Origin: an uncultured Acidobacteriota bacterium
Lineage (GTDB): Bacteria; Acidobacteriota; Vicinamibacteria; Fen-336
Direction of reading: 5' to 3'
Length of the DNA stretch: 64,000 bases
Assembly: GCA_963742595.1 (NCBI GenBank)
Contig: CAVUMT010000001.1
Span: 3,854,314 to 3,918,313 of the forward strand
Shown: positions 10,648 through 58,567 of the stretch, piece by piece
Layout: each line of letters starts with the position of its first letter
How positions within the stretch are numbered: position 1 is the first letter of the stretch
Made by a program: the position numbers and the translations under genes
The notes under the pieces: generated by a model
Told to the model about the DNA's origin: nothing
What the model saw: the letters and a program-made list of their open reading frames with translations, nothing else
Database searches by the model: none

Positions 10648-10732
10648 GTTCTCCTTCGGTTCGAAGCTATTGACCCGAGTCGGGACGGCCCCCGACCCAC
10701 ATTACCACCGCCCGGAAGGGCGGTCGGTCGCT

Positions 10733-12231: not shown

Positions 12232-12292
12232 CCGGCGATATTAGCACCGGGGCCGGGCCGGACTAGAATGACGGCGCCCCGGAGACCCAGAC

Positions 12293-43725: not shown

Positions 43726-44032
43726 GTTCGATGTCGTCGCTAGGCTGTCGTACCAGTGCAACTCGGCCCACGGAGTTGACCGTGAGACAGCCGGACCATC
43801 GCTTCACCCTTCATCTCGAGCCGTGCCTCGTCCGCCGCATCGCATCGTTCGTCGGCCTCCACGCTCATGCTAGCCCTCGTCGTGTCAACCAGCTCTTCAG
43901 CCGCGCTCCAATTCCCGGAAGGCGGGGGAAAAAGGTGCGGCCCAGGTCGGCGAGGAGAGGATGGTCTGGACAAGCCTCACGAAGGATGCCGAGCCAATGA
44001 TCGAAGGCGTCTTGAGTCATCGGCTCAGCCCT

Positions 44033-44668
44033 TCATGAATCGGTGCTCAGACCGAGGCGCTTTGCGACGAGTTCCACGGTACCGCGAAAAGGTGAGCTAC
44101 CCGCGCCTCCCAGTGCACGCTGGATCTGTTCCCGAGCCTCTGACAAGAGGCCCTTCTCAACAGCGAGCATCGCGTGGACAAGGGGCGCTTGGCTCGGTAT
44201 CAAGCCCGGAAGGCCTCCGCTCTCCCGCAGGCCACTCAGCAGTGCATCGCTGTTCACGAACCTGTCGAGGAAGGGCACGCCATATGCTATGACGGCGTCC
44301 GCGACTTCCCCTGAGACCGCGGCCAAGTCAATGTTGGCGTCTACCTTCCACCAGTGATCGCACCGCGACGGCATGAGAGCGCCGATCCGCTGACAGACGG
44401 GGTAGAGAGCCGTTGCCGGGTTCGAAGGTATCGGCCTCGAGGTCCACAAGGTGTAGAGCCAGGGCGATGTCACCCCGAGGTTGACCGTAAACGAACCGGA
44501 TGTCGCAGTACCCCACTGACTCGACTGAAAGTGGACGCCGTGGATCACACCTTGATGAAGACGATGGAGGTGAAGCCCCTGTCGACGAAAGCCGGCGCTC
44601 TTGAGGCCTCGGTCGCTGGCAGCCTTCGCCGCCGCCGCCATGGCGAGCCGTGTTCGTGAAGGTGGCAT
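44033..44668 (-). CDS. DUF4304-like hypothetical protein; possible distal-most cassette or flanking gene
   Basis: Intact 211 aa; begins immediately after attC_a; no clear attC downstream. Confidence 0.4.
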   Translation of the reverse strand: MPPSRTRLAMAAAAKAASDRGLKSAGFRRQGLHLHRLHQGVIHGVHFQSSQWGTATSGSFTVNLGVTSPWLYTLWTSRPIPSNPATALYPVCQRIGALMPSRCDHWWKVDANIDLAAVSGEVADAVIAYGVPFLDRFVNSDALLSGLRESGGLPGLIPSQAPLVHAMLAVEKGLLSEAREQIQRALGGAGSSPFRGTVELVAKRLGLSTDS

Positions 44669-44692
44669 CTCACCTCAGTCGGCCGAACACTG

Positions 44693-44796
44693 CGGATCAC
44701 CTGCGAAGCCGCGACTCAATGAAGAAAGGTGCGTCTGGGTACTCTTCCTCCAGGTAAGCCACGCACTTTGTCAGGTGCATCCGCTTGTTGGGCGGC
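44693..44796. other. Integron attC-like recombination site (a)
   Basis: gccgAACACtgcggatcacCTGCGAAG...CTTTGtCAGGtgcatccgcTTGTTgggc; arms pair with bulged bases. Confidence 0.7.
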
Positions 44797-44810
44797 TCAC
44801 GCGACTCCCT

Positions 44811-45206
44811 TTAAGGATGCCTTGCCTTCAGGCTGATGATGCACCAGAAGCCCATGACAGCGTGACCAACGACGATGGGCCAGAGGGCGATCCCGGACAC
44901 TCCCCAGACGAGAGCCGCATGGACAAGAATCGTAAGGACCCCGGCGTTGTAGAGCGCCATCGCGCCTACAAGGCCCCGCACCGCGCGAGTGCCTTCGTCA
45001 TGCCGCGCCAGCCAGCATGTAACTCCCAAAGCCAGCAGCGCCACCCCTGCGACACGCGCGACGACGAGCGCAGCGACCGAATCGAGTAATGAACCCAGTA
45101 TCAGAGACGACACGAGGGAGGGTTGTGCCAATAGCCCAAGACCAGTAGCGGCTTCCAGCACCGCGGTGACGGTCAGAACCTTGTTCATGCCCGATCTCTC
45201 CAGCAC
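44811..45206 (-). CDS. Cassette ORF: small 4-TM membrane protein
   Basis: Intact 131 aa; hydrophobic. Confidence 0.5.
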   Translation of the reverse strand: MLERSGMNKVLTVTAVLEAATGLGLLAQPSLVSSLILGSLLDSVAALVVARVAGVALLALGVTCWLARHDEGTRAVRGLVGAMALYNAGVLTILVHAALVWGVSGIALWPIVVGHAVMGFWCIISLKARHP

Positions 45207-45299
45207 GCGTCGCCCATGGGTTGTCTATCATCCTCGGGAACTCCGCCTCGGTCTTCCACCGAAGCGTCTGGGCTTGACCCGTTTTGGTAGACAGTCTCT

Positions 45300-46153
45300 C
45301 TATGCCGCCGGTTGATCGCCAACAGAGTAACGCCGTTCCATCTCGGCAGGGCTCGCGTATCCGAGGGACGAGTGTCGGCGCTGCTGGTTGTAGAACACCT
45401 CGATGTAGTCGAACAGCTGGTCCTTGGCATCACCTGGGGTATCGAACCGCTCGCCGAGCTCGAACTTGAGCGTCGAGAACCAGCTCTCCATGGCAGCGTT
45501 GTCGTAGCAGTTGCCACGGCGGCTCATGCTGCAGGTGATTCCACGAGCGGCCGAGTGTCCGACGGTAGTCCTCGCTGGCGTACGTACTGCCCTGGTCGGA
45601 GTGATGAAGCAGCCCGGCGTGCGGATCCGCGGCGCTGCAGCGCCTGGTCCAGGGCTCGAAGGGTGAGATGGCGATCGTTGACAGCGCTGATCGCCCAGCC
45701 GACGATGAGCCGCGAGTACAGGTCGAGGACGGCGGCGAGGTAGAGCTGCCGCTTCCCGCGAGCAACTCCGTGGTGTCACCGACCCACCGCTGGTTCGGCG
45801 ATGTGGCGTCGAACCGGCGGGCGAGCAGGTTCGGAGCGACCGGCTGATCGTGCTCGCTCATCGTGGTGCACTGGTACCGGCGACGGACACGAGCCTTGAG
45901 GCGCCCCTGGCGCATGAGTCGCGCGATCCGCTTGCGGCCCACGTGCTCTCCCTGAGGCCAGCTCGGCGTGGACGCGCGGGCTGCCGTAGGTTCGGCGACT
46001 GCGCTCGTGAGCCGCCTGGACCAGAACCGTCGAGCCTCCGATCCTCGCGCGCCCACCGCGACTCCGGGCGCTCCTGCCAGGCGTAGAAGCCAGCCCGAGA
46101 CACCGAGAGCACAGCGCACATCCTCGAAATCGGATACGCCGCCTTCTCCGCAT
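45300..46153 (-). pseudogene. IS3 transposase OrfB (DDE integrase), at least 2 extra frameshifts
   Basis: ...NQRWVGDTTELLAGSG..., ...CYDNAAMESWFSTLKFEL...YNQQRRHSSLGY... in 3 frames. Confidence 0.7.
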
Positions 46154-46168
46154 CGATGAACGCGAACC

Positions 46169-46498
46169 TCACGCGTTCTCCTTCGCGAAGAAGGCCGCGG
46201 CTTTTTTTAGGATGTCGCGCTCCATCCGCAGCTCGCGGTTCTCCTTGCGCAGCCGCGCGAGCTCCGCACGCTCCTCGGTGGTCAGGCCCGTCTTGCCCTT
46301 GGATCGGTCCGCGCTCGCATGGGAGACCCACGTCGCCACGGAATTGGCACTCAGGTCCAGGTCGCGAGCAACCTGGGCGATCGTCTTGCCTTCGTCCAGC
46401 ACCAGGCGCACCGCCCCGGCCTTGAACTCCTCCGTGAACGCCCGCCGCAGACGCTTGCTCCTACCCTCTTGCTCCTTCATGCTCGACATCGTATCCAC
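46169..46498 (-). CDS. IS3 transposase OrfA (HTH)
   Basis: MDTMSSMKEQEGRSKRLRRAFTEEFKAGAVRLV...; AAAAAAG heptamer at its end. Confidence 0.8.
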   Translation of the reverse strand: MDTMSSMKEQEGRSKRLRRAFTEEFKAGAVRLVLDEGKTIAQVARDLDLSANSVATWVSHASADRSKGKTGLTTEERAELARLRKENRELRMERDILKKAAAFFAKENA

Positions 46499-46538
46499 CT
46501 TTCATCGGGTGTCTACGAAATCGGGTCAAGCCCAGTCC

Positions 46539-46630
46539 GCCCAACACCGGGGTTGAGCTGCAAGCCTCCCCCGGCCAGCCGGGCCCGCAACCGTGGCTTG
46601 TCAGGTCCAGATACCCCTTGTTGGGCCGCG
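46539..46630. other. attC-like site (b)
   Basis: cccAACACcggggttgAGCTGCAAG...CTTGTCAGGTccagatacccCTTGTTgggc; IS copy 1 inserted 2-4 bp from its edge. Confidence 0.65.
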
Positions 46631-46641
46631 CCTTCACTCCG

Positions 46642-47397
46642 CTAGCCGGTAGACCTGACGAGCAAAGCCGACCGGGTCTTGGGCTTCGCCACTGATGGCC
46701 CTGTCAAGATAGCCCAGTCGGAGTTCTGAATGAGCGCCTCCATAGCATGGAATGGCTTTGCCGGAGGCCTCCACGCTCCGTCATGGCAGTGACTCAGAAG
46801 AGTTCCTCCATCCTCCAATCTGATCGCCAGCGCGTCGAGGGCGGCTTGCCGCTCGTCTGGAGCGAATACCTGAAGGGTGCGACGCTCAATGATGAGGTCA
46901 AACGGACCCCTACAGAGGGACGGGTCCACAATGCTGCCGACCACGTACTCCAAGGTACCGCCGGGTCGTCGGAGACTTGGGTTGAGCATCCGCTCGGATT
47001 CTCCGGGCCGAGGATCCCAGGTCTGTGCCAGCCTCAGGGCGACGGGAGATATGTCGAGGGCAACCACTTGAAGGCCTGCTTCGGCAAGGACCCGAGGCTC
47101 CTGCGACATCCCGCAACCAGCACAGAAAACCCGCGTCATGACATGACGGTTCATGAATTCAACTAGTTCGGTATCGTCGCAGAACATGTCGAACAATGGC
47201 GGGGCAAGTCCGTGGGCCACCTGCTCGCTCCAGTATTGGTCCCATGCAGCCGGGTCCCTTGTAGTGGAAGGAGGAAGGAGCCACCCGAGCTCATCTGCCC
47301 TTGCCTTCAGCCGCGAGGCCGCCAAGGCCCTGGCCGAGGTCCCCGGGTCGTAGCCTCTGGTGAACCAGTCCAGAAGGCCGCGAAGCGCTCGGATCAT
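46642..47397 (-). CDS. Cassette ORF: class I SAM-dependent methyltransferase-like
   Basis: Intact 251 aa; ...VFCAGCGMSQEPRVLAEAGLQVVALDISPVA... Confidence 0.55.
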   Translation of the reverse strand: MIRALRGLLDWFTRGYDPGTSARALAASRLKARADELGWLLPPSTTRDPAAWDQYWSEQVAHGLAPPLFDMFCDDTELVEFMNRHVMTRVFCAGCGMSQEPRVLAEAGLQVVALDISPVALRLAQTWDPRPGESERMLNPSLRRPGGTLEYVVGSIVDPSLCRGPFDLIIERRTLQVFAPDERQAALDALAIRLEDGGTLLSHCHDGAWRPPAKPFHAMEALIQNSDWAILTGPSVAKPKTRSALLVRSTG

Positions 47398-47413
47398 CGC
47401 CCCCTCCCTAACG

Positions 47414-47488
47414 TCGGCCCAACACCAGATCAGCTGTGGCGCTCAAGTCCTGCCGGCGCCGTCAGCCGCATCTTGTTGTTCTACGGCC
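47414..47488. other. attC-like site (c)
   Basis: ggcccAACACcagatcAGCTGtggcgc...gcgccgtCAGCcgcatctTGTTGTTc. Confidence 0.6.
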
Positions 47489-47496
47489 TCGCTCTT

Positions 47497-47718
47497 CTAT
47501 GAGGCTCGAACAGCCAGGATGTCGTTCGCGGCTACCGAGCGCAGGTCGGCCGCCGGCAACGTAAGCAAGGCCTTGGTGTGACCAGACGCGCGAACAAACT
47601 CCACCTCGAGAGCATCTGATCCGTGGAGCTCAACGACGGCACCGAGATCACCCGCACGCAAACCATGCTCAGGGAGATCTCGGTTTAGTACCACAGTATC
47701 CAGCAGCGCAAACTTCAT
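47497..47718 (-). CDS. Cassette ORF: DUF4926-like small protein
   Basis: 73 aa; ...VVLNRDLPEHGLRAGDLGAVVELHGSDALEVEF... Confidence 0.5.
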   Translation of the reverse strand: MKFALLDTVVLNRDLPEHGLRAGDLGAVVELHGSDALEVEFVRASGHTKALLTLPAADLRSVAANDILAVRAS

Positions 47719-47720
47719 GC

Positions 47721-48050
47721 TTACCTCGGGCGAACGGTGACGAGCCTGACATCAGCGCGCCCTGGTTCCTGGACCCACACCGTCACCACCGCTAGGCTTC
47801 CTGTGGGTCCAGTCAGATCGCCACGAACAGTGTACTTCCGCCCATAGTCGAAGTCCTCCACCTCGGCAACGTCTCCCACCACCGCGATGCGCCGAACTTC
47901 GGCAATAAAGTCGTCCGCCTTCGCATCGTCAAAGCCTACAGCGGCGAAGACCCTGGCCTTGAATCGCCCAACAGGATGGGTTGGGGACAGGAGGTAGGCG
48001 CGAATCTTGTGGGCGTCGATCTGGACCGCCTCAGCCTGCGGGAGCTTCAC
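47721..48050 (-). CDS. Cassette ORF: DUF6883-like partner of DUF4926 (putative toxin-antitoxin-like pair)
   Basis: 109 aa; 2 bp upstream of the DUF4926 ORF. Confidence 0.4.
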   Translation of the reverse strand: MKLPQAEAVQIDAHKIRAYLLSPTHPVGRFKARVFAAVGFDDAKADDFIAEVRRIAVVGDVAEVEDFDYGRKYTVRGDLTGPTGSLAVVTVWVQEPGRADVRLVTVRPR

Positions 48051-48607
48051 TCCTCGTCTCTCTCCTCACGGTCCGTCGAACTCCAAGGATCGGCTGCGAA
48101 GCACGACTCAATGACGCCGGCGCGCGAAGGCGCGCCTACGAAAGGAACACCGCGCTTCGTCAGCTGCATCCGCTTGTTCGGCTGCCGCTGCAGGACTTCA
48201 GAGGACTCAATGTCAACAGCAAGGTGCCAGCGCAGGCCACGATTCTCTGCCTCTTCCAGGAGATGCTGAAAGCCGACCAGTTCCAACGTCACGCCCCTGC
48301 TCTCGGGGATGGCTCCGGGATGATCGTCGAGGTACGCGATCAGAGCTCGAACGGTAGCCAACCCTTCGGCAGGCGCAAACCATTCTTCTTCGGGAACGGT
48401 CTCGGCTGTGAGACCTGTGTTGAACTGCTCAGCTTCGGCCAAAGCGTCCGCGGGATTCATGCTGAAGAAGGACATCAGCGAAGCAACCCCCAGCTTCTCC
48501 GCAAGCTTCCCAAGTTCTTCGTCGGCGCGCGAAAGATCATGACCGTCGACGTAAGTGTCAAAGCCGGGAGCGTCGGTGTTCAGAACGATGTAGAGCGCAG
48601 CGCCCAT
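48047..48607 (-). CDS. Cassette ORF: hypothetical protein (C-terminus reads through attC_d)
   Basis: 186 aa; C-terminal ...NKRMQLTKRG... encoded by the attC arm. Confidence 0.45.
   Translation of the reverse strand: MGAALYIVLNTDAPGFDTYVDGHDLSRADEELGKLAEKLGVASLMSFFSMNPADALAEAEQFNTGLTAETVPEEEWFAPAEGLATVRALIAYLDDHPGAIPESRGVTLELVGFQHLLEEAENRGLRWHLAVDIESSEVLQRQPNKRMQLTKRGVPFVGAPSRAGVIESCFAADPWSSTDREERDEE
48072..48184. other. attC-like site (d)
   Basis: gtcgAACtccaaggatcgGCTGCGAAGc...gCTTCGtCAGCTgcatccgcTTGTTcggc. Confidence 0.7.
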
Positions 48608-48620
48608 CGTTAGCTCAGGT

Positions 48621-48697
48621 CAGCCGAACACTGAGGATAACCTGTGAAGCTCCTTCGCTTGCGCTGGCTTCGCCAGGTTCATCTCTTGTTGGGCCGC
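48621..48697. other. attC-like site (e)
   Basis: gccgAACACtgaggataaCCTGTGAAGc...gCTTCGCCAGGttcatctcTTGTTgggc. Confidence 0.7.
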
Positions 48698-48963
48698 CCC
48701 GTCGATCCCCCGAGGCGCGACACGCGAATCCGGGAACAACTCTGCTGCAGCTTCTGGTTGAGATAGCTAGGATCGCGTGCAGCATGACGCTTGATCCGAT
48801 AGATGTTGTATGCGTCCATCAGGCAGTAGCAGGTGACGAGCATGAGGGGAATCAGCGTCGCCTTGCCTGGGTACTTGTAGGCGAGGCCGAGTAGTCCCAC
48901 GATTACCACGCTCAGGAACTTGACCGACGCCTGAGATTGCCGGAGCGCCGTCTTGTACTTCAC
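48679..48963 (-). CDS. Cassette ORF: small 2-TM membrane protein
   Basis: 94 aa; hydrophobic. Confidence 0.4.
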   Translation of the reverse strand: MKYKTALRQSQASVKFLSVVIVGLLGLAYKYPGKATLIPLMLVTCYCLMDAYNIYRIKRHAARDPSYLNQKLQQSCSRIRVSRLGGSTGRPNKR

Positions 48964-49168
48964 GCCCTCTCACCCCGTAGCAGTAACGCTTGCGCCATGC
49001 TTCGCGGAGGGAACGCTGGCGACCGTCACTTGCACGACGCCGTTAGCAGCAGACGTCGCAGAGCAACGGACCTCAACGTCGGACTGGAATTCCTCCGCCC
49101 AAGCCCACGACGCTGCGACCGCACTCCTCGCACCTCCACGCGTCTGCTTCCCGTTCGACCTTATCCGT

Positions 49169-49253
49169 CCGCAGAACACTGCGGATGAGCTGCGAACGGC
49201 GCCTCCGTCTTGGCTCGGGCGACGTTCGTCAGCTCCATCCGCTCGTTCGCCCG
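49169..49253. other. attC-like site (f)
   Basis: gcagAACACtgcggatgAGCTGCGAAcg...cgTTCGtCAGCTccatccgcTCGTTcgc. Confidence 0.7.
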
Positions 49254-49262
49254 CTCGCTCAC

Positions 49263-49502
49263 CTACTTCGGAACATCCTCCAGTCGGGTCCCGAGGCCGG
49301 CTCTGATTGCAGTCCGTGCCTGCTCGATCTGGCGTAAAAACTCCGGATGATTCTCAAGCCTGTACTCGAACCAGTCATCCTCGCTTTCGAAACCGATCAA
49401 CACGCCGGCTGGTCTTCCGTGGCGGGTGATCAGAATCTCCCGGTCGGCTGCGAGCTTTAGGTACCGCGAGAGGTCGTCCTTCACCTCCGCCAAGGCGACC
49501 CG
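49263..49502 (-). CDS. Cassette ORF: Phd/YefM-family antitoxin
   Basis: ...LAEVKDDLSRYLKLAADREILITRHGRPAGVLIGFESEDDWFEYRLENHPEF... Confidence 0.6.
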   Translation of the reverse strand, partial: RVALAEVKDDLSRYLKLAADREILITRHGRPAGVLIGFESEDDWFEYRLENHPEFLRQIEQARTAIRAGLGTRLEDVPK

Positions 49503-49797
49503 GCGGGGTTGGGGTAGCCTCTTGCGCGAGCCAGCCCTCCGCCTGCTCCTTCGGGATGATGGCGAGGACTTCAACCGTCGTTTCCGTGACGTCATAGAAC
49601 ACCCTAACCTCATTCACCCTGAGCCGATACTGCGGCCGATTCAGTCCACGCAAGCGCTTGATACGACTCTTGCTGAGCTTGGTCGGCTCGTGGCGCAGGT
49701 GCAGCTCGATGGCATCCCGGACTCCCGTCTGGAAGTCAGCTCTCAGGGCCTTCAGACCCCTGACAGCCTGAGGGGCCAAGACGATCTCGAACGGCAT
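49500..49797 (-). CDS. Cassette ORF: RelE/ParE-family toxin (ORF track extends to 49375 without a stop)
   Basis: MPFEIVLAPQAVRGLKAL...SRIKRLRGLNRPQYRLRVNEVRVFYDVTETTVEVLAIIPK... Confidence 0.6.
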
Positions 49798-49844
49798 CTG
49801 GCCAGATTATAGCCAGAATGCTATCTCGTCGCTCCCTCAATGTC

Positions 49845-49958
49845 GGGCGAACACCAAGGATCAGCTGCAAAGCGCGACTCAGTTAAGGAAGCCGATCCGC
49901 GGAACCCTTCCTCCAAGTCTAGCTCGCGCTTTGCCAGCTGCATCCGCTCGTTGGACGG
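49845..49958. other. attC-like site (g), long-loop variant
   Basis: cgAACACcaaggatcAGCTGCAAAGcgcgactcag...ctagctcgcgCTTTGcCAGCTGcatccgcTCGTTggac. Confidence 0.65.
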
Positions 49959-50345
49959 CTCCCTCGATCTCTGGCTTTACGTGGTGCGTTCCATGGCTCT
50001 TCGAACTCTCCAAGCGTAGATCCCGCTTCACGTAAGGCCACTCGCTTCCCAAGGAGGCGTGGCGCGGCGCGTGCTCGCCCTGCAAGGGATGTGACGCCCC
50101 TCGGGACGCCATAGCTCCCTTCATTGCCCAGCAACCTCATGATGCCAGATCCCCGACGAGTGCCGCGAAGGTCTGCGCTCTCGCGGGAGACTCCACTGCC
50201 CAGCTCACTCTTCGCTCGCGGAGTCCTCTCGATTGCCGTGGGGGCGGCGCATCCCTTGCTACCACTGCACGCGACGTGACACGCCGGATTCGAACGACGA
50301 TCTCCACCTACTCACCGCGTCCGTTTCCCACACGATCCGTTAGGC
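49958..50345. repeat. About 390-bp cassette-like element (copy 1), no convincing ORF; duplicated at 55591-55980
   Basis: Near-identical to 55591-55980 (starts ggctccctcg(a/c)tctctggctttacgtggtgcgttccatggctc...). Confidence 0.75.
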
Positions 50346-50428
50346 CGTCCAACACTGGATTGAGCTGCAAAGGCCGCGGTTCCTCGCCGGCGCGGACTTC
50401 GTCTGCTCCAATCCTTTGTTGGGCGGCA
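50346..50428. other. attC-like site (h)
   Basis: gtccAACACtggattgAGCTGCAAAGg...cTTCGtCTGCTccaatccTTTGTTgggc. Confidence 0.7.
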
Positions 50429-50441
50429 CCGTGATTCCACC

Positions 50442-50780
50442 TCATCGTAACGCTGACGCATCGCCCGTGCGACGCGCACGCCTCACGCGGCCGAGCCATA
50501 AGACTAGCCCCACGAACAGGGATGCGGCGATCAGGGATGCCACTGCTGCGTCGACCACGGGACCAACAATGTATCTCGCCTCGAAGATGTTGAGGCTCCC
50601 CCAGAGGAGCCAACAGAGTCCGCCCGCAACGACGTTCAACGGTAGGAAGAGCCACGAGAAGACTGCTTCGAACGCGGAGAACCAGGACTCGCTCTGATTG
50701 CTGGTCACGAAGACCCACCAGCAGAGTATGTGGAGACCTGAATAGCCGTAGACGGCGCTGACAACCCACCGTACGTTCAT
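50442..50780 (-). CDS. Cassette ORF: small membrane protein
   Basis: 112 aa; 3-4 TM. Confidence 0.45.
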   Translation of the reverse strand: MNVRWVVSAVYGYSGLHILCWWVFVTSNQSESWFSAFEAVFSWLFLPLNVVAGGLCWLLWGSLNIFEARYIVGPVVDAAVASLIAASLFVGLVLWLGRVRRARRTGDASALR

Positions 50781-50794
50781 GATTCAGTCAATCT

Positions 50795-50880
50795 CAGACA
50801 AGTTGGTTCGGAGGCGGCCAGTGTGGCTTCGTGCCCCTCAGCATGTCCGCCCGCTCACGAAGGGCCCAATGTTCCTACCG
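50795..50880. other. Degenerate attC-like site (i)
   Basis: ggccagtgtggCTTCGTGcccc...gctCACGAAGggcccaatgttcc; correct position between cassettes but atypical arms. Confidence 0.35.
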
Positions 50881-50901
50881 GCCGCTCGCGGCGCGACGAG
50901 T

Positions 50902-51189
50902 TCATGCGACCTCCATCTCATGTGGGGCAAGGCCAATGCTGTGGCTGCGGGATCCGTCGCTTTCATCCCAGACCCTCTCGACCCAGGCAGAGCCGAACTC
51001 GTCGATCTCATACACCTCAAAGACTGCCCCGAGCATGGACTCGATGTCCGGCCGCTCATCAACCGGCAGCTTTGCGATTAGCGACACCGGAATCTCAAGT
51101 ACACGCACTCTTGTGCCCACCGTGATCTGCCGGCCTGACCGGTCGGTCGTCGCCTTATGTTGCTGCATCGTCAAATGCCCGCCCAACAC
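50902..51189 (-). CDS. Cassette ORF: hypothetical soluble protein
   Basis: 95 aa; no family recognised. Confidence 0.4.
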   Translation of the reverse strand: MLGGHLTMQQHKATTDRSGRQITVGTRVRVLEIPVSLIAKLPVDERPDIESMLGAVFEVYEIDEFGSAWVERVWDESDGSRSHSIGLAPHEMEVA

Positions 51190-51258
51190 TGGATTAAGCT
51201 GCGAAGCGCGTCCAATCTAGCCACCGCGCTTCGTCAGCTTCAATCCATTGTTCGACGG
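51177..51258. other. attC-like site (j)
   Basis: cgcccAACACtggattaAGCTGCGAAGcgcg...cgcgCTTCGtCAGCTtcaatccaTTGTTcgac. Confidence 0.75.
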
Positions 51259-51295
51259 CCCTTCACTTGGAGGCGTCGCCTCTCAACCACCGTTC

Positions 51296-51631
51296 TCATC
51301 CGGTCACGACACCCAAAACGACCAGGACGCTCACGCCAACGGCGAAACATGCCGTCAGCACCATCTCTGAGTTGGCAAGTCCAACGCCCGCTCTCCGCCC
51401 TCGAACGATGCACACCACGGAGACCAGTAGGTACACAGGTGACGCCCAAAGCGCCATTCCCAGCCCCACGAGAAGCAGAGTAGCTGGACTCGGAGATGTA
51501 TGGACGTTGAGAGCCGGCGCGGCCAGGCCTCCTAGCACGCCCAGACCAACGACTACCCATCCTGATCGCACGAGCCATGACGGGAGGACGCCGTCGTCAA
51601 CTGTAGAATCGCTGTGCCCAACTCCGGTCAT
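51296..51631 (-). CDS. Cassette ORF: small membrane protein
   Basis: 111 aa; 3 TM. Confidence 0.45.
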   Translation of the reverse strand: MTGVGHSDSTVDDGVLPSWLVRSGWVVVGLGVLGGLAAPALNVHTSPSPATLLLVGLGMALWASPVYLLVSVVCIVRGRRAGVGLANSEMVLTACFAVGVSVLVVLGVVTG

Positions 51632-51687
51632 CGCGCCCCGGAGACTGAGTTGTCAGCTCGGCAGGTCATCATCTCCGCTTCACTCGG

Positions 51688-51766
51688 TCCGTCGAACACC
51701 GGGGATAAGCTGCGAGCGTCCAATATGCTCAACGCTCGTCTGCTTCATCCCCTTGTTCGACGCCGC
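51688..51766. other. attC-like site (k)
   Basis: gtcgAACACcggggataAGCTGCGAGCGtccaatatgctcaACGCTCGtCTGCTtcatccccTTGTTcgac; near-identical to site p. Confidence 0.75.
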
Positions 51767-52307
51767 CGCCCTTCCGCCGAGCCACACCACTGGGCTCAGA
51801 CTCTACTCCCCAGAATGCCGATAGCGCTTGAATCATCGAACGCGCACGCGACCTTGCGGTGTACTGGTGCGCGAATCCGACAGCTGCCATGAACACGAGC
51901 CAGCCACCCAGGAACCTGGCTTCGTTCGCATGCCAGGCGAGGCCGAGAAGGCTGATGCCAGCCAACACGCACACAGCCGAGACGAGGTTGCCCCAGGGAT
52001 CCTCGGTGAGCTCAACCCTCACCATGCTCGCCATACTTTCGGCTGGCTTGACGACGCCTTGGGCACGGAAGCGGCTTCGGAGGACTAAGTAGAGGATGTC
52101 GAACTTGTCGCCTTCGGCTGCGACGCTCGCGAGGAACAGGCCGCGTGGCGACCATCGATGACTTGGCGGAACCTGCCGGACATCCGTCGCCTTCCTCAAC
52201 CTCGCGACGACCTCTGCGGGAGGCTCCCCTAGGGTGATATCAGCCGCGGCGATCATTCGCCACATGGCCAGCGTGCCTCCAGCGCTCCTCGACAAGGCGG
52301 CGAACAC
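51729..52307 (-). CDS. Cassette ORF: hypothetical membrane protein (C-terminus ...QGDEADER encoded by attC)
   Basis: 192 aa ORF; shares its attC-encoded tail with the ORF at 54637. Confidence 0.4.
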   Translation of the reverse strand: MFAALSRSAGGTLAMWRMIAAADITLGEPPAEVVARLRKATDVRQVPPSHRWSPRGLFLASVAAEGDKFDILYLVLRSRFRAQGVVKPAESMASMVRVELTEDPWGNLVSAVCVLAGISLLGLAWHANEARFLGGWLVFMAAVGFAHQYTARSRARSMIQALSAFWGVESEPSGVARRKGGGVEQGDEADER

Positions 52308-52378
52308 TGAGATGAGCTGCGAGGGCCGCGCCGCCTCGCCGTCGCGGACCTCGTCAGCTCCATCTCATTGTTGGGCGT
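52297..52378. other. attC-like site (l)
   Basis: gcgAACACtgagatgAGCTGCGAGGgccgcg...cgcggaCCTCGtCAGCTccatctcaTTGTTgggc; gagatg/catctc covary. Confidence 0.75.
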
Positions 52379-52449
52379 CTGGTGATTTGGCTGACCTGCC
52401 CGGGCCACCTCGGCTTGCCCGCTGCCGGCGGAGCGAGGCAGGCACGCCC

Positions 52450-52866
52450 TCACTTGCGGTACGCAGACGCAAATGGCCCGTAAAGCACCGGAGCCTCTTT
52501 GTCGCGAGAGCGCTTCTCGATGACTACCGTGACGTTGTCACCCGACCGATACACCGCGTACCGCGGCCACGACGACCCACTGGAGGAGATGCGACATTTC
52601 GAGTAGTCGGGTCCGAGGGGGGGACCGGCGTAAACGTGTCTCGGGTCAGACAGCTGCCCTTTCGATTCGAGAGTCTTGATAAGCGCTTCAAGCGCCGGCT
52701 CGCACTCCTCCAGCGGCACCGCTTTGCTCGCCACGGCGTTCACGGGCGACGCGATCGTGCTCGCAAGGAGGGCACAGAGCACGCCCCTCGCAAGCCAGCG
52801 CGGCGGGGAGGCGAAGGCAAGATCGTTTTCCGTCTGCATGGACCCTCTATTGCACGCCCAACACAT
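52450..52866 (-). CDS. Cassette ORF: small secreted protein
   Basis: Signal-like ...LARGVLCALLASTIASPVNA... Confidence 0.45.
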   Translation of the reverse strand: MCWACNRGSMQTENDLAFASPPRWLARGVLCALLASTIASPVNAVASKAVPLEECEPALEALIKTLESKGQLSDPRHVYAGPPLGPDYSKCRISSSGSSWPRYAVYRSGDNVTVVIEKRSRDKEAPVLYGPFASAYRK

Positions 52867-52933
52867 GGATCAGCTGCGAGCGGCGTCCATTCTCGCCGCG
52901 CCGCTCGCCAGCTGCATCCATTTGTTATCCGGC
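52855..52933. other. attC-like site (m)
   Basis: gcccAACACatggatcAGCTGCGAGCGGCGtccattctcGCCGCGCCGCTCGcCAGCTGcatccatTTGTTatcc. Confidence 0.75.
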
Positions 52934-52953
52934 TGCTCCTTCCCGCGCAAGGC

Positions 52954-53451
52954 TCAGGGCTTCCCTGAAGCGGGCGCAACCACGAGAACACCAGTATCGG
53001 GATCCTTGGACCGCTCCTCGAAGGCAGCCTGGAGAGCCGCGTCCTTGAGGAGAGCATCGAAGTAACGCTTGGATGCGGTAACCAGGGCCGCGTAGAAGTC
53101 CTCTGCGTTCAGGACTGTGAGACCGCCATCCGTCGTGAGATGGACTTGGCTGTTGTGGTGAGTGAGCTTGTAGGGACCGGGTGAGAACCCATGAACGGCT
53201 GCGTTGCGGAGCTTCCACAGAGGATCGGCGTGGCTCGGGTACGGATCGGCGAAGTAGTCCTTCAGGAATCCCCTGAAGCGCGCACCATTTCCTTCGTTCG
53301 GCTTGAGAAAGCCACCGAGCGCCTCGATAGCCGTGAGGGAACAGATGAACGAGAGAAAGGCGCCATCATCGTTCAGGAGGCAGGGAATGCCCCCCAGGTA
53401 AATTCGGCCGAAGTTGCCTGCAACGTGCTTGATTAGGTCCGGCGTGCTCAT
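52954..53451 (-). CDS. Cassette ORF: hypothetical protein
   Basis: Intact 165 aa; soluble; no family recognised. Confidence 0.45.
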   Translation of the reverse strand: MSTPDLIKHVAGNFGRIYLGGIPCLLNDDGAFLSFICSLTAIEALGGFLKPNEGNGARFRGFLKDYFADPYPSHADPLWKLRNAAVHGFSPGPYKLTHHNSQVHLTTDGGLTVLNAEDFYAALVTASKRYFDALLKDAALQAAFEERSKDPDTGVLVVAPASGKP

Positions 53452-53482
53452 GCTCGTCTCCAGCCGCGCTCTTCAGATGTCC

Positions 53483-53556
53483 GGATAACACTGCGTTCAG
53501 CTGCGAGCGGCGTCCATTCTCGCCGCGCCGCTCGTCAGCTGCAACGCATTGTTCGA
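53483..53556. other. attC-like site (n)
   Basis: ggatAACACtgcgttcAGCTGCGAGCGGCG...CGCCGCTCGtCAGCTGcaacgcaTTGTTcgac; same loop as site m with covarying stem hexamer. Confidence 0.75.
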
Positions 53557-53564
53557 CGGTGCCT

Positions 53565-54062
53565 TCAAGGGTGCTCGCTCGCGGGCGCAGCGACACGTCG
53601 CTTGCGACGGTTCAGGTATGCCGCGCCGGCCCACCCGATCGCCCACCACTGAGCGCAGCTCACGACGACGAATACTCCAGTGGCGACCCAACTCGCAGCC
53701 CGTAGCCCCAGCCGGCCTTCGAAGGCCGCGGAGGTCAGAGCAGCGAAAAGCGCGCCTGGGAGGTTCACCAAGATCGCCGCCACCTTGAGGGGGCCGTCCT
53801 CCCAGTAGTGGCCTCCGAAGCCGCGCTCGGCCAGGACGAGCATCGAACGCGTACCGGAACGCAGATGGAACTCGACCCCCGTGGCGGTGTGAACCTCCCA
53901 CGAGTCGGGTGTCACAAAGTACTCGGCAGGCAGGCGAGGGGTGCTGACGACGAGGGCCAGCCAGAACGCTACGTGAACCGCTACGAGGCCGTTGGCGAGT
54001 GCAGTCACTCGCTCAGACACCCACGCCACCAGTTGCTCGCTCCTTGATCCATGTCCGAGCAT
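53565..54062 (-). CDS. Cassette ORF: membrane protein
   Basis: 165 aa; 4 TM. Confidence 0.45.
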   Translation of the reverse strand: MLGHGSRSEQLVAWVSERVTALANGLVAVHVAFWLALVVSTPRLPAEYFVTPDSWEVHTATGVEFHLRSGTRSMLVLAERGFGGHYWEDGPLKVAAILVNLPGALFAALTSAAFEGRLGLRAASWVATGVFVVVSCAQWWAIGWAGAAYLNRRKRRVAAPASEHP

Positions 54063-54064
54063 CC

Positions 54065-54140
54065 GTCGAACACTGGAGTTAAGCTGCGAAGCTCCGAAGT
54101 CTACCAGGCTTCGTCAGCTTCAACTCCTTGTTCGGCGGCC
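54065..54140. other. attC-like site (o)
   Basis: gtcgAACACtggagttaAGCTGCGAAGCtccgaagtctaccagGCTTCGtCAGCTtcaactccTTGTTcggc. Confidence 0.75.
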
Positions 54141-54161
54141 TCGCCCCACCCCCGAGATGTA

Positions 54162-54656
54162 TCACAGCAAGGGGATGTTGTAGTCGGGATACCGGAGTGG
54201 CGTCAGGTGCACCAACGCTGATATCGCGCACAAGAGCACGACGAGGAGAACCAGAATGATCCGCTCGGTTGGGCTTGTGGTCACTCCGTTCTGGCGTGCG
54301 CGGAAGACCTTCACCAGGGCGACTGGAATCCACACGAACGCTGCGAGATAACCCCAGCTGCCCAGCCACGCCAAACCGAAATCGACGTTCATGATACGAA
54401 GGTCGAACTGCGCACCACCGTTAGCGTCGATACGCAGTGGCTGCTCCGGCTGCCACCATTGGCCCGGCAGTCTAGGGAGGAGTAGCAGGAGATCAAAGAG
54501 GACGAGAGCAATCCCGAACGCACAGAGCCACCCGACCAGTCGCATTCGTCGGCTCAACACGGGCTGCGCGGTCGTCACGCGTCGCTCTCCAACGGTCCGC
54601 CGAACACTGGGGATAAGCTGCGAGCGTCCAATATGCTCAACGCTCGTCTGCTTCAT
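54162..54656 (-). CDS. Cassette ORF: membrane protein
   Basis: 164 aa ORF; likely starts at internal MRLVGWLCAFG...; 3-4 TM. Confidence 0.45.
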   Translation of the reverse strand: MKQTSVEHIGRSQLIPSVRRTVGERRVTTAQPVLSRRMRLVGWLCAFGIALVLFDLLLLLPRLPGQWWQPEQPLRIDANGGAQFDLRIMNVDFGLAWLGSWGYLAAFVWIPVALVKVFRARQNGVTTSPTERIILVLLVVLLCAISALVHLTPLRYPDYNIPLL

Positions 54657-54673
54657 CCCCTTGTTGGACCGCC
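54597..54673. other. attC-like site (p)
   Basis: gccgAACACtggggataAGCTGCGAGCGtccaatatgctcaACGCTCGtCTGCTtcatccccTTGTTggac. Confidence 0.75.
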
Positions 54674-55152
54674 CCGTCGATCCACCTCACTGAGCCACCG
54701 AACCGGCGCGCCAGTTCTCTCGCGAGTTCCTCTGCCACCGTTCCGATAATGTGGATGGGGGCGTCAGCCGCGAACGCGTCAGGCCACTCCACCAGAGGCG
54801 CATCACCTCCATAGATGAAGAGGTGATCGGCCAATTCGGGTTCTGCATTTGCTGCAGCGAGTCTGCCGAGTTCTTCAAGGACCGCAGAAGTGAAGGGGAG
54901 GCGCCACTGCTCGGAGCGTGGCCACATGGTCTGCGGAGCTGGGAGGTACGGGCCCGGCACTCGAAGCTGCTCGAGCGACTGCCGCACCGACTGGGATTGG
55001 GAAGTCCCCTCCAGAAACAGAGTGCTTCCGCCGATCGCAACTGAACCCACGTTCTCGAAGAACCGCTGGGCATTAGTGACACCCAGTACCTCCCACCGCG
55101 GCTGGTCCCACAGACTCAACGGCACTCTAGCAGTCACGTTGCCTGCGTCCAA
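54637..55152 (-). CDS. Cassette ORF: hypothetical protein (tail ...QGDEADER from attC)
   Basis: 171 aa; soluble; no family recognised. Confidence 0.4.
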   Translation of the reverse strand: MDAGNVTARVPLSLWDQPRWEVLGVTNAQRFFENVGSVAIGGSTLFLEGTSQSQSVRQSLEQLRVPGPYLPAPQTMWPRSEQWRLPFTSAVLEELGRLAAANAEPELADHLFIYGGDAPLVEWPDAFAADAPIHIIGTVAEELARELARRFGGSVRWIDGAVQQGDEADER

Positions 55153-55164
55153 TCTCGAAAGGTC

Positions 55165-55242
55165 GGTCCAACACCGGGGATAAGCTGCGAAGCTCCATCG
55201 CTTGCGCCGGCTTCGTCTGCTTCATCCACTTGTTGGGCCGCA
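55165..55242. other. attC-like site (q)
   Basis: ggtccAACACcggggataAGCTGCGAAGCtccatcgcttgcgccgGCTTCGtCTGCTtcatccacTTGTTgggc. Confidence 0.7.
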
Positions 55243-55386
55243 CCGTGATTCGACCGCACTAAGGACCGGTCTCTGACGTGTGGTACGCCACGACGCGCCA
55301 GGCATCGCTTGTACGCACGTAGACCTTCATGAAGCGCCAGTGGGCTTGACCCGATTTCGTAGACACCCGATGAAAGGTGGATTACG

Positions 55387-55590
55387 ATGTCGAGCATGAA
55401 GGAGCAAGAGGGAAGGAGCAAGCGTCTTCGACGGGCGTTCACGGAGGAGTTCAAGGCCGGGGCGGTGGGCCTGGTGCTGGACGAAGGCACGACGATCGCC
55501 CAGGTTGCTCGCGACCTGGACCTGAGTGCCAATTCCGTGGCGACGTGGGTCTCCCATGCGAGGGCGGACCAATCCAAGGGCAAGACGGGC
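55387..55590 (+). pseudogene. IS3 OrfA, truncated after ...SKGKTGLT by internal insertion
   Basis: MSSMKEQEGRSKRLRRAFTEEFKAGAVGLVLDEGTTIAQVARDLDLSANSVATWVSHARADQSKGKTGLT then unrelated sequence. Confidence 0.7.
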
Positions 55591-56118
55591 CTGACGGCTC
55601 CCTCGCTCTCTGGCTTTACGTGGTGCGTTCCATGGCTCTTCGAACTCTCCAAGCGTAGATCCCGCTTCACGCAAGGCCACTCGCTTCCCGAGGAGCGTGG
55701 AGCCGCGCGGCTGCCTGCAAGGGATGTGACGCCCCTCGGGACGCCATAGCTCCCTTCATTGCCCAGCAACCTCATGATGCCAGATCCCCGACGAGTGCCG
55801 CGAAGGTCTGCGCTCTCGCGGGAAGACTCCACTGCCCAGCTCACTCTTCGCTCGCGGAGTCCTCTCGATTGCCGTGGGGGCGGCGCATCCCTTGCTACCA
55901 CTGCACGCGACGTGACACGCCGGATTCGAACGACGATCTCCACCTACTCACCGCGTCCGTTTCCCACAGCGATCCGTTAGGCCGTCAACCGCGGATCAGC
56001 TGCAAAGCGCGACTCAGTTAAAAAAGCCGATCCGCGGACCTTCTTCCAAGGAGACTGCGCTTTGCCAGCTGCATCCGCTCGTTGGACGGCTCCCTCGCTC
56101 TCTGGCTTTACGTGGTGC
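55591..56118. repeat. Insert inside IS copy 2: 390-bp element copy 2 + attC-like site (55983-56091, near-identical to site g) + 36-bp direct repeat of the element start
   Basis: Circular permutation of the unit attC_g + element seen at 49845-50345; direct repeats ggctccctcgctctctggctttacgtggtgcgttc at 55591 and 56083. Confidence 0.7.
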
Positions 56119-56983
56119 GTTCATGGCCTTGCGGAGAGGGCGGCGTATCCGATTCGAGGATGTGCGCTTTTCTCTCGGTGTCTCGGGCTGGCTTCTATGC
56201 CTGGCAGGAGCGCCCGGAGTCGCGGTGGGCGCGCGAGGATCGGAGGCTCGCGGTTCTGGTCCAGGCGGCTCACGAAGGGCAGTCGCCGAAGCTACGGCAG
56301 CCCCCGCGTGCATGCCGAGCTGGCCTTTCAGGGAGAGCACGTGGGCCGGAAGCGGATCGCGAGACTCTGCGCCAGGGGCGCCTCAAGGCTCGTGTCCGTC
56401 GCCGGTACAAGAGCACCACGATGAGCGAGCACGATCAGCCGATTGCTCCGAACCTGCTCGCCCGCCGGTTCGACGCCACATCGCCGAACCAGCGGTGGGT
56501 CGGTGACACCACGGAGTTGCTCGCGGGAAGCGGCAAGCTATACCTGGCCGCCGTCCTCGACCTCTACTCCAGGCTCATACGCTGGCTGGGCGATCAGCGC
56601 TGTGAACGATCGCCATCTCACCCTTCGAGCCCTGGACCAAGCATCTGCAGCGCCGGGATCCGCACGCCGGGCTGCTTCATCATTCCGATCAGGGCAGTAC
56701 GTACGCCAGCGAAGACTACCGTCGGACACTGGCCGCTCGTGGAATCACCTGCAGCATGAGCCGCCGTGGGGACTGTTACGACAACGCGGCCATGGAGAGC
56801 TGGTTCTCGACGCTCAAGTTCGAGCTCGGCGAGCGGTTCGATACCCCAGGTGATGCCAAGCACCAGCTCTTCGACTACATCGAGGTGTTCTACAACAAGA
56901 AGCGCAGACACTCGTCCCTGGGATACGCGAGCCCTGCCGAGATGGAACGGCGTTACTCTGTTGGCGATCAACCGGCGGCATAG
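56119..56983 (+). pseudogene. IS3 OrfB (DDE transposase), frameshifted
   Basis: ...EKAAYPISRMCAFLSVSRAGFYAWQERPESRWAREDRRL..., ...NQRWVGDTTELLAGSGKLYLAAVLDLYSRLI..., ...CYDNAAMESWFSTLKFEL... Confidence 0.7.
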
Positions 56984-57014
56984 AGAGACTGTCTACCACA
57001 ACGGGTCAAGCCCA

Positions 57015-57324
57015 AGCGGTCAACACGCCCGTCTCGCCGACGCCAGCGGTGTAGAGCCGTTTCCCGTTCAGGTGCACCTCGAACCCGACCATGATCAGCG
57101 TGCCCTCCAATCTGTCGGTGTCATCGCCCGCTTAGCAACGTCCGCAGAACACTTAGTATCTTGCAAGGATAACGCCTTTGGCCTTGCGTGGTTTGCAAGG
57201 TAACGCCGAGGATCCAGTTCCGAGGAGGGGGAAGTAACGCCCGGGAAGGAGGTTGCGGGGGGCGGGTGGTTTCACGAGGGTGATAGCTTGCGTCGGATAA
57301 CGTTTTGGCCACGCGAAGGCTTGG
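57015..57324. other. Candidate attI / Pc region between IS copy 2 and the intI 3' end
   Basis: Contains gcagaacactt (half-attC-like junction) followed by direct repeats cttgcaaggataacgcc / tttgcaaggtaacgcc (IntI-binding direct-repeat-like). Confidence 0.35.
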
Positions 57325-58390
57325 TCAGGGGGTCGGGTCGGCGGCGATGGAGTCGAGGGGGCTGCGGACGCCGCGACCGCCGCGGTTGAGGACGTGGGTG
57401 TAGATCATGGTGGTGGAGACGTCGCTGTGGCCCAGGAGCTCCTGGATGGTGCGGATGTCGTAGCCGCTCTCCAGCAGGTGCGTGGCGAACGAATGGCGGA
57501 GGCTGTGGCAGGTCGCGGGCTTTGAGATGTTGGCGGAGCGCACTGCGTTCTTGAAGGCTCGCTGAATGGCGGATTCGTGCAGGTGGTGGCGGAGCCGCTC
57601 GCCCGTCTTTGGATCGACGTACAGCCGGCTGGCCGGGAAGACCCACTGCCAGGGCCACTCGCGACGAGGCGTTCGGGTATTTTTCGGCGAGGGCGTGGGG
57701 AAGCCGCACGGTGCCCACACCGGCCCGCCGATCGTTGTCGTAGCGGGTGCGGACACGGTCGATGTGGGCGCGCAGTGGAGGGGCCAGGCGATCCGGGCAG
57801 CATCGTGACCCGGTCCTTGTCGCCCTTGCCGGAGCGGACGGTGAGCTCTCCCCGAGCGAAGTCGACGTCCTTGATCCGGAGCTGGGCGCACTCGAGGACG
57901 CGGAGGCCCGCGCCGTACATCAGCGACGCCATCAGGCCGAACGCACCGTTCAAGTGGCTCAGGATGAGCGCCACCTCCTGCCGCGTGAGGGTCTGGGGCA
58001 GCCGCTCCGGCCTCTTGGCGCGCACCACCTTGTCCAGCCCCTCGAGCTCGCGTCCCAGGACTTCGCGGTAGAGGAACAGCAGCGCGCTGAAGGCCTGGTT
58101 CTGCGTGCCGGCGCTCACACTCGGCGTGTACGGCGAGGCGCGTCAGGTAGGCGCCGACGTCGTCTGCGCCCAGGGACTCCGTGTCGCGGCCCCGGTGGAA
58201 CGCGCAATAGCGCTGGATCCAGCCGAGATACGCCTTCTCCGTTCGGCGGCTGTAGTGACGCGTCCGAAGCAGATCGCGCGTGCGGTCGATCAGCGGCTTG
58301 GGCGGACCGCCGTTGGAGCGCCGTCGAACCTGTCCGGTGACCACGATGCGCGCCGGGCCGGTGAAGTCGGTACGCGGGTCGGGCGGGCGG
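57325..58390 (-). CDS. intI: Integron integrase IntI (tyrosine recombinase with IntI-specific insertion), two frameshifts; maximal ORF to 58491
   Basis: ...[24 protein letters not shown]..., ...[36 protein letters not shown]...[37 protein letters not shown]..., ...[106 protein letters not shown]. Confidence 0.85.
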
Positions 58391-58567
58391 AAATCGGGGG
58401 GAGGCGCGACGCTCGTCGTCACGCGCCCTCCGCGGGCGCGAGGCGGGGACGTCGCCGGCCAGGGCGGAGTGCCGCCGAGCGGATTGCCCATCGGCCAAGC
58501 CTAGTCGGGAGGGCGGACGGGGGAGGTCCGGAACGGATTGCGGTCTGGACGACACACCGGTGCGCCC

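Follow-up and report, generated by a model that had tools for sequence, protein, structure and literature searches.

The 64,000-nucleotide (nt) stretch analysed here (hereafter the window; GenBank assembly GCA_963742595.1, contig CAVUMT010000001.1, positions 3,854,314–3,918,313 of the forward strand), which comes from an uncultured Acidobacteriota bacterium of the Fen-336 lineage in the Vicinamibacteria, carries an integron cassette array that holds two copies of one IS3-family insertion sequence (IS), and the second of these copies (IS2) contains a circularly permuted copy of a cassette of the same array (cassette g). We suggest, with a probability of roughly one half, that this cassette was copied or joined into IS2 through short microhomologies and without the integron integrase (IntI); the position of the joints, the length of the inserted unit and the loss of IS sequence all point in this direction.

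A permuted cassette copy inside an insertion sequence

The features on which this reading is based are as follows.

45269–46534, minus strand: IS1, a 1266-bp IS3-family element
55341–57014, plus strand: IS2, the same IS, 1674 bp long and interrupted
49852–50352, minus strand: cassette g, 501 bp with G|TT at each end, made up of a ~395-bp element and attC_g
49846–49956, minus strand: attC_g, with R' GTTCGCC at 49852–49846 and R'' GTCCAAC at 49956–49950
55596–56129, minus strand: the insert in IS2, derived from cassette g, circularly permuted, 1.09 units
55593–55640: left copy of a direct repeat, matching the 46 nt at the R'' end of the cassette body
56085–56130: right copy of the direct repeat (46–48 nt)
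55984–56087, minus strand: a complete attC inside IS2, with a recombinant (circle-type) R' junction and a fully paired R box

An earlier note on this DNA had placed both IS copies at exactly these coordinates and in these orientations and had recognized a permuted cassette copy in IS2. Alignment of the insert with cassette g, and of IS1 with IS2, confirms both the permutation and the identity of the IS: the insert corresponds to cassette g in rearranged order (55593–55986 to 49954–50349, and 55993–56130 to 49858–50001) and exceeds one unit (~537 nt for a unit of 492–501 nt, that is, 1.09 units). It begins at the outer edge of R'', runs through the whole cassette body into the end of attC_g, passes at G|TT into the start of cassette g, continues through a complete attC and ends after entering the same 46–48 nt of the body once more. 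In exchange for these 521 bp, 117 bp of the IS is missing; with the right joint placed at 56130 instead, 131 bp has given way to 537 bp. The earlier note's picture of a clean replacement was too simple, as it missed the in-register IS-like patches treated below, and its 36-bp repeat of the start of the element measures 46–48 nt.

What IS2 has lost is IS nt 255–371/382, comprising the 3' end of orfA, the slippery site with its stem-loop and the start of orfB, and an intact relative of the IS (L081, from a metagenome assembly) shows that the interrupted segment is native IS sequence. Having lost the frameshift window, IS2 cannot make the OrfAB transposase; both IS ends are kept. Outside the patches, the insert and cassette g share ~99.5% identity, with 2 substitutions and a few single-nucleotide indels between them, compared with 41 substitutions in ~900 nt (4.5% divergence) between IS1 and IS2, and the capture is therefore recent relative to the split of the two IS copies. 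The window holds two IS copies and no more, and likewise two copies of the cassette g element.

The interior join of the insert (attC_g left arm–G|TTG(G)ACGGCC–cassette g start) is the product of excision between attC_h and attC_g, which exists only in a circularized cassette or in a tandem g–g arrangement; the junction expected for a free circle of cassette g reads ...CCTTGGTG|TTGGACGGCC... In the array, the R' half of attC_g comes from the neighbouring cassette. The attC inside IS2, with its R box fully paired, folds at −33.4 kcal/mol, compared with −29.2 kcal/mol for the array copy.

Neither joint between the insert and the IS lies at G|TT, the only such junction being the one within the insert. 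At the left joint, GAC is common to the IS and the cassette, and the break (GTC|CAAC) falls inside R'', after its first three bases on the cassette strand; the right joint lies within GCGTTC(C)ATGGC, and its cassette side is 46 nt upstream of R''. That the junctions are off the canonical crossover had been pointed out in the earlier note and holds at both ends; the 'GGg' at the distal joint, read there as a hybrid of element and IS, is instead the ancestral IS base, as in L081.

In its canonical reaction and at secondary sites alike, IntI cuts the cassette at the G|TT of R' and inserts one unit without loss of target sequence. This definition of both reactions draws on established knowledge and on PMC8876359. 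The insert resembles IntI insertions at attI, attC and secondary (attG) sites in that a cassette with its attC is involved and in that its internal junction is of the kind that IntI makes on circularizing a cassette, but it differs from them in its target joints (not at G|TT), in its 1.09 units and in the 117–131 nt of lost target. With the wrong crossover point, the wrong unit length and lost target DNA, the joints were not made by IntI; short homologies within the range of 1–10 nt, the lack of a core site at the joints and target loss are instead what is found in microhomology-mediated illegitimate recombination. The earlier note had proposed illegitimate or secondary-site recombination in place of classical IntI insertion: the illegitimate route is borne out by the joints, the excess over one unit, the interior attC, the microhomologies and the target loss, and the secondary-site route is unsupported, since such a reaction still cuts the cassette at G|TT.

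A possible route of capture

The simplest account would be copying and joining through microhomology, in the following order of events. Two diverged IS copies would have transposed into the chromosomal integron array, IS1 past the crossover of attC_b and IS2 into the first cassette, and a copy of cassette g would later have entered IS2 without the integrase. The template may have been a cassette g circle excised by IntI or, less likely, a tandem g–g duplication. We infer that a DNA end arose in the orfA/orfB frameshift stem-loop region of IS2 and annealed to the cassette via 3 nt (GAC/GTC) at the foot of the attC hairpin; assuming a circular template and synthesis in this direction, extension would have proceeded slightly over one turn (~1.09) round the ~500-nt circle before the strand rejoined IS2 117–131 nt downstream via the GCGTTC..AT microhomology. 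The predicted product is an IS2 that lacks OrfAB, keeps both ends and holds the whole cassette with a complete attC between 46-nt direct repeats. A joint at the foot of the attC hairpin would fit stalling of a polymerase on the folded strand, and an integrase gene with all IntI motifs together with attI lies within ~1.2 kb of the insert.

Microhomology-mediated templated insertion (that is, by microhomology-mediated break-induced replication, by fork stalling and template switching, or by end-joining with filler DNA) leaves short homologies at the joints, loss of target and a copy of nearby DNA. The insert in IS2 shares all of these features (microhomology at both joints, target loss and a copy of nearby sequence); it differs in its presumed template, namely a small circle copied through more than one turn. 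A tandem g–g template, or end-joining capture of a multimeric fragment, may have yielded the same product.

Several points weigh against capture of this kind. It is seen at a single locus in a single assembly consensus, and this consensus is uneven (at least 7 frame breaks in gatB, 3 in intI and 5–7 private indels in each IS copy). The fine in-register mosaic described in the next section would not be expected from a simple template switch in one step, and a circle cannot be told from a tandem g–g template by its product. Moreover, neither a free cassette g circle, nor a second g copy, nor another example of an IS with a captured cassette was found.

IS-like patches within the insert

Three short clusters in the insert are strongly diverged from cassette g, of which two resemble the IS.

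55688–55713, plus strand: IS-derived patch 1, corresponding to IS nt 257–285 (26/27 identical) and replacing 30 nt of the cassette in register
56024–56054, plus strand: IS-like patch 3 at the centre of the attC (AAAAAA, CCTTCTTC, AAGGAGA), corresponding to the IS frameshift window

Wherever patches 1 and 3 depart from cassette g, they do so in the direction of the IS and in register with it. Patch 1 has the variant of the IS1/IS2 lineage (GAGCGTG; GAAAGGG in the outgroup L081), and in a jumping alignment IS nt 341–358 fall at 56039–56054 (16/18 identical). The lengths exchanged are almost equal (29 nt for 30 nt, and 16–18 nt for 19 nt). When the 117-nt IS1 segment that IS2 lacks is aligned locally to the insert, its nt 2–38 score 25 (shuffles, 12.9 ± 1.9) and its nt 41–109 also score 25 (shuffles, 11.3 ± 1.7), whereas against the array copy of cassette g the segment scores at the shuffle mean. 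The mosaic switches every 3–10 nt and retains loops of 92, 270 and 60 nt.

We rate a consensus artefact from mixed reads (the mixture may have come from IS2 molecules that do and do not carry the insert, or from cross-mapped reads of the IS) slightly above real gene conversion as the origin of these patches. It may well be, although we hold this tentatively, that the insert is real but that the patches and many of the small indels were introduced during consensus calling or polishing, reads from an uninterrupted IS (an insert-free IS2 allele or other copies) having been aligned across the insert and having partly won the base calls, in which case the true insert would be an almost exact copy of cassette g. 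In-register differences directed towards the IS and frequent switches are the signature of such an alignment-based merge, the missing IS1 segment matches the insert (25 against 11–13 ± 2) and not cassette g of the array, and the frame breaks in the essential gatB and in intI show that consensus errors exist in the window. Conversely, a majority of insert-free reads should have removed the loops as well, and two cassette proteins of the array (a TPMT and a DUF4926 protein) are identical to those of two independent short-read assemblies, so part of the array at least was called accurately. An artefact of this kind would touch the second layer of the structure alone and is compatible with capture through microhomology.

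A biological origin of the mosaic, through gene conversion or heteroduplex repair with an uninterrupted IS (IS1 or another copy) or through several template switches during the capture, seems unlikely to us. It would account for the lineage variant in patch 1 (GAGCGTG against GAAAGGG in L081) and for the collinearity of the patches with an IS that has a copy, IS1, 9 kb away on the same replicon. However, conversion across 400 nt of heterology normally drops or keeps an entire insert, switching every few nucleotides with loops of 92, 270 and 60 nt retained is no known outcome of bacterial mismatch repair, and cassette g bore the IS no significant prior resemblance by which pairing could have been guided.

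The remaining cluster (55987–55992) improves pairing in the attC stem and need not derive from the IS. Comparison of 55987–55996 with 49852–49861 shows that the spacer between the R and L boxes of the attC inside IS2 reads CCGCGGAT, not CCAAGGAT; the CCGCGGAT spacer pairs better with the opposite arm (GCGGAT) and may have arisen by quasi-palindrome (templated) correction and not from the IS.

Less probable readings and the reliability of the assembly

A more far-reaching view, which we consider doubtful, takes the insert as the fossil of a free cassette circle that served as template for rolling repair synthesis over more than one turn, and, in combination with the enrichment of the lineage in arrays, the IS as a shuttle that moves content between arrays. 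Were it correct, the element, with a whole cassette and a functional attC between its intact ends, would be mobilizable in trans by its sister copies, could take both out of the integron and could seed attC elsewhere, and the cassette circle could re-form by recombination of the 46-nt repeats.

It is very improbable that one or two IntI insertions of cassette g at a secondary site in IS2 were later trimmed by flanking deletions to the present permuted form. The integrase gene and attI are adjacent, and low-frequency use of secondary sites by IntI is known (PMC8876359), but neither joint has G|TT, the IS side offers neither GTT nor GWT (CTGA|CC; TTCAT|C), two insertions and two deletions would be required, which is unparsimonious, and the ends of the deletions would by chance have had to leave a 46-nt direct repeat.

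That the whole structure is an assembly chimera or a repeat collapse, as the repeat-rich locus (IS1 and IS2, cassette g and its copy) and the uneven consensus might suggest, is equally improbable, given that assemblers join at long repeats and not at microhomologies of 3–8 nt, that no repeat graph explains two joints 0.5 kb apart around a permuted unit of more than one length, that IS1 and IS2, at 94–97% identity, are separable, and that contigs of two short-read runs stop at the edge of IS1, as expected for a real repeat.

The consensus itself is uneven. To read through the essential gene gatB (10667–12247), the frame must change at least 7 times, and in a frame plot of G+C at third codon positions (GC3) the favoured frame flips every few hundred bases in 1–12 kb and 32–39 kb and is stable in 12.7–20 kb and 39.9–42.7 kb. 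Because of the frame breaks in gatB and intI and the unstable GC3, any small indel in the window is suspect. The TPMT and DUF4926 cassette proteins (46642–47718) are identical to proteins on short-read contigs of runs ERR12040024 and ERR15459712, which end 107 nt past the TPMT stop codon, that is, at the IS1 boundary (46535). Exact-protein look-ups gave no match for intI as read, for P0001 or for the two open reading frames (ORFs) that span the IS2 joints, which leaves these joints without independent confirmation.

Taken as a whole, the IS elements and their potential for inversion are ordinary and have a published precedent, and the cassette capture is unusual but a single rearrangement whose fine structure may be partly technical; the IS2–cassette composite is a curiosity rather than a new system. 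If real, it would indicate at the level of sequence that DNA can acquire a copy of an excised or duplicated cassette without the integrase, and that an attC can land in a transposable element, which would open a possible path of escape from integrons for attC and cassettes. It also serves as a warning that fine repeat mosaics in long-read metagenome assemblies can mimic exotic recombination.

The integron and its cassettes

The G+C content of the window is ~70% and falls to ~62% in the stretch ~43.8–57.1 kb, which is the cassette array of the integron. Weight matrices built from the repeat families D1 and D2 identified 17 attC sites (43827–55242), all in a single orientation, and gave no matches in the window's remaining 49.7 kb. 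Each site, on the minus strand, runs from R'' (RYYYAAC) to R' (GTTRRRY), after which comes a conserved cassette start (TTSGRCGGAC); folding of the attC hairpins gave z-scores of −2.2 to −5.6. The array thus combines co-oriented attC sites with R''/R' cores and hairpin potential, and it lies next to attI. The sites and genes concerned are listed here.

46535–46626, minus strand: attC_b, with R' GTTGGGC at 46545–46539 and R'' at 46626–46620; abutted by IS1
57140–57320, minus strand: putative attI, with crossover core GTG|TTCTGCGGAC at 57152–57140 and no R'' partner
57328–58330, minus strand: integron integrase gene intI, co-oriented with the cassettes, with three frame changes in the consensus

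We read the core at 57140–57152, together with the repeats beside it, as a putative attI and give its crossover as 57150. Four repeats of the GGCGTTAY type lie between the core and intI (to ~57320); they take the form GGCGTTAY/AACGTTAT. As read, the intI ORF scores 231.8 bits against TIGR02249, which is under the cut-off of 265, and the consensus shifts frame three times within it; stitched from three frames, it holds all IntI motifs (including KYPNA...EWPWQWVFP...RHH). The gene and the cassettes share one direction of transcription, the layout known as 'inverted integrase'.

Six-frame reading of the ~395-bp body of cassette g (49957–50345) revealed no convincing ORF, the GC3 signal is weak, and neither an Rfam match nor a relative in the fetched loci or the metagenome scan was found for it; cassette g may be non-coding. 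An exact 22-mer of the element had no match in the Joint Genome Institute (JGI) metagenomes, a BLAST comparison of the element with all of the 107 loci fetched gave none either, and an Rfam scan of 43500–59000 (E ≤ 0.1) was likewise negative. Descent of cassette g from the IS was considered and rejected, its array copy scoring against the IS at the shuffle mean. Elsewhere in the array, two pairs of attC sites are near-duplicates (51685–51778 and 54593–54686, 89%; 52860–52926 and 53487–53553, 87%); both are closer than the family average, which hints at cassette duplication or attC exchange in the array.

The two IS copies and their potential to invert the array

IS3-family elements are ~1.2–1.6 kb long, have imperfect terminal inverted repeats (5'-TG...CA-3'), generate target-site duplications of 3–5 bp and carry two overlapping ORFs, orfA and orfB, that −1 frameshifting at an A-rich slippery site joins into one product. 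The element found here has the textbook architecture of this family: 1266 bp in length with terminal repeats (TGGGCTTGACCCG...CGGGTCAAGCCCA in both copies), it has an orfA with a helix–turn–helix domain (IS nt 46–366; an ORF of 109 amino acids, or 106 from ATG, that matches PF01527, HTH_Tnp_1), an overlapping orfB of the DDE/rve type (whose fragments match rve, rve_3 and HTH_21, as well as the IS3 transposase model NF033516) and an A-rich slippery site (A7G at IS nt 327, located in IS1 at window positions 46208–46201). The two copies are inverted relative to each other within the minus-strand cassette array; IS1 nt 1–254 are 97% identical to 55341–55595, and IS1 nt 372–1266 are 94% identical to 56117–57014.

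IS1 is flanked by a 3-bp target-site duplication, as the earlier note had proposed.

45266–45268: target-site duplication of IS1, copy 1, GTC on the plus strand
46535–46537: target-site duplication of IS1, copy 2, GTC, within the conserved GTTGGGCGGAC after the attC_b crossover

The element stands directly after the GTTGGGCGGAC of attC_b, 10 nt beyond the G|TT crossover. IS2 lies next to attI, 135 nt into the first cassette, and its flanks (CAG| and |AGC) show no clean 3-bp duplication, only AG being common to them. The idea that IS2 abuts a core site (GTGTTGACC) was rejected, the real attI crossover lying at 57140–57152.

L081, which is 1266 bp long and 93.5% identical, has an orfA of 106 and an overlapping orfB of 290 amino acids. 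Measured against L081 and two further relatives (L082 and L083), IS1 and IS2 have 28 derived substitutions in common; IS1 has 30 private substitutions and 5 private indels, and IS2 has 11 substitutions and 6–7 indels of its own. In both copies, orfB needs 5–7 frame corrections relative to L081, possibly as a result of sequencing error, and neither IS1 nor IS2 as read has an intact active transposase. The two are ordinary IS3-family copies, of which IS2 at least is non-autonomous.

As inverted homologous copies, 94–97% identical over 255 and 898 nt with a longest identical block of 91 nt, IS1 and IS2 have enough identity for RecA, and their recombination could invert 46535–55340 (8.8 kb with 15 attC sites). 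Inversion by the pair, as the earlier note envisaged it, is thus reasonable, but the deletion it also named is not, since inverted repeats give no simple deletion. There is no evidence of a completed inversion in the window: every attC site, whether between the IS copies or beyond them, points the same way, and IS1 still has its target duplication intact, so that the array is either native or has been flipped an even number of times.

An experimental precedent exists in Vibrio cholerae N16961 (Richard et al. 2024, PMC11023631), in which homologous recombination between two inverted IS3 copies inverts a 79-kb segment of the array. Both cases have paired IS3-family copies of ~1.26 kb with overlapping orfA and orfB, in opposite orientation, among the cassettes of a sedentary chromosomal integron (PMC11023631). 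They differ in that the copies described here are 94–97% identical, bracket 8.8 kb rather than 79 kb and show no detectable inversion, and in that one of them is disrupted by a cassette insert, which has no counterpart in V. cholerae. The pair would constitute a ready-made switch for 15 attC sites, and such flipping alters cassette excision rates in V. cholerae.

The IS lineage in soil metagenome arrays

The exact 27-nt left end of the IS occurs on 23 JGI metagenome contigs, many of them from related samples, which represent ~17 distinct sites of a lineage 78–95% identical to the element (L085–L107). At least 6 of the ~17 sites lie in attC arrays of the same type (L086, L088/L091, L089, L090, L093/L098 and L105; for example, spanning 44–4908 in L088, 211–3138 in L105, 196–1823 in L093 and 563–2174 in L089), and three more are suggestive. 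The lineage is thus enriched in the cassette arrays of soil metagenomes, but it is not site-specific: copies are found inside attC or 10, 25, 58, 83 and 135 nt past the crossover, in both orientations, and strict specificity for attC was rejected on account of this variation. The enrichment may reflect tolerance of insertions in arrays rather than targeting. Full metagenomic copies of the IS showed no clear target duplication, the contigs in question being possibly chimeric.

With the IS1111-attC group (IS110 family) and the group IIC-attC introns, the lineage shares a preference for cassette arrays, but unlike them it is a DDE element of the IS3 family, and its position relative to attC is not fixed. 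Among 72,556 plasmids in the plasmid database, no relative of the IS exceeded ~67% identity. A scan of species-representative genome contigs with OrfA gave a best match of 75%, with matches in Vicinamibacterales, Myxococcales and metagenome-assembled genomes (MAGs) of Acidobacteriota.

One of the JGI metagenome contigs (L103) carries the IS in the 3' end of a gene for a tyrosine recombinase. Several matches to the attC matrices of the window also lie near more distant OrfA relatives (66–72%) in Acidobacteriota and delta-proteobacterial MAGs (L012, L015 and L008), and the association of the IS with arrays may therefore reach beyond its close lineage.

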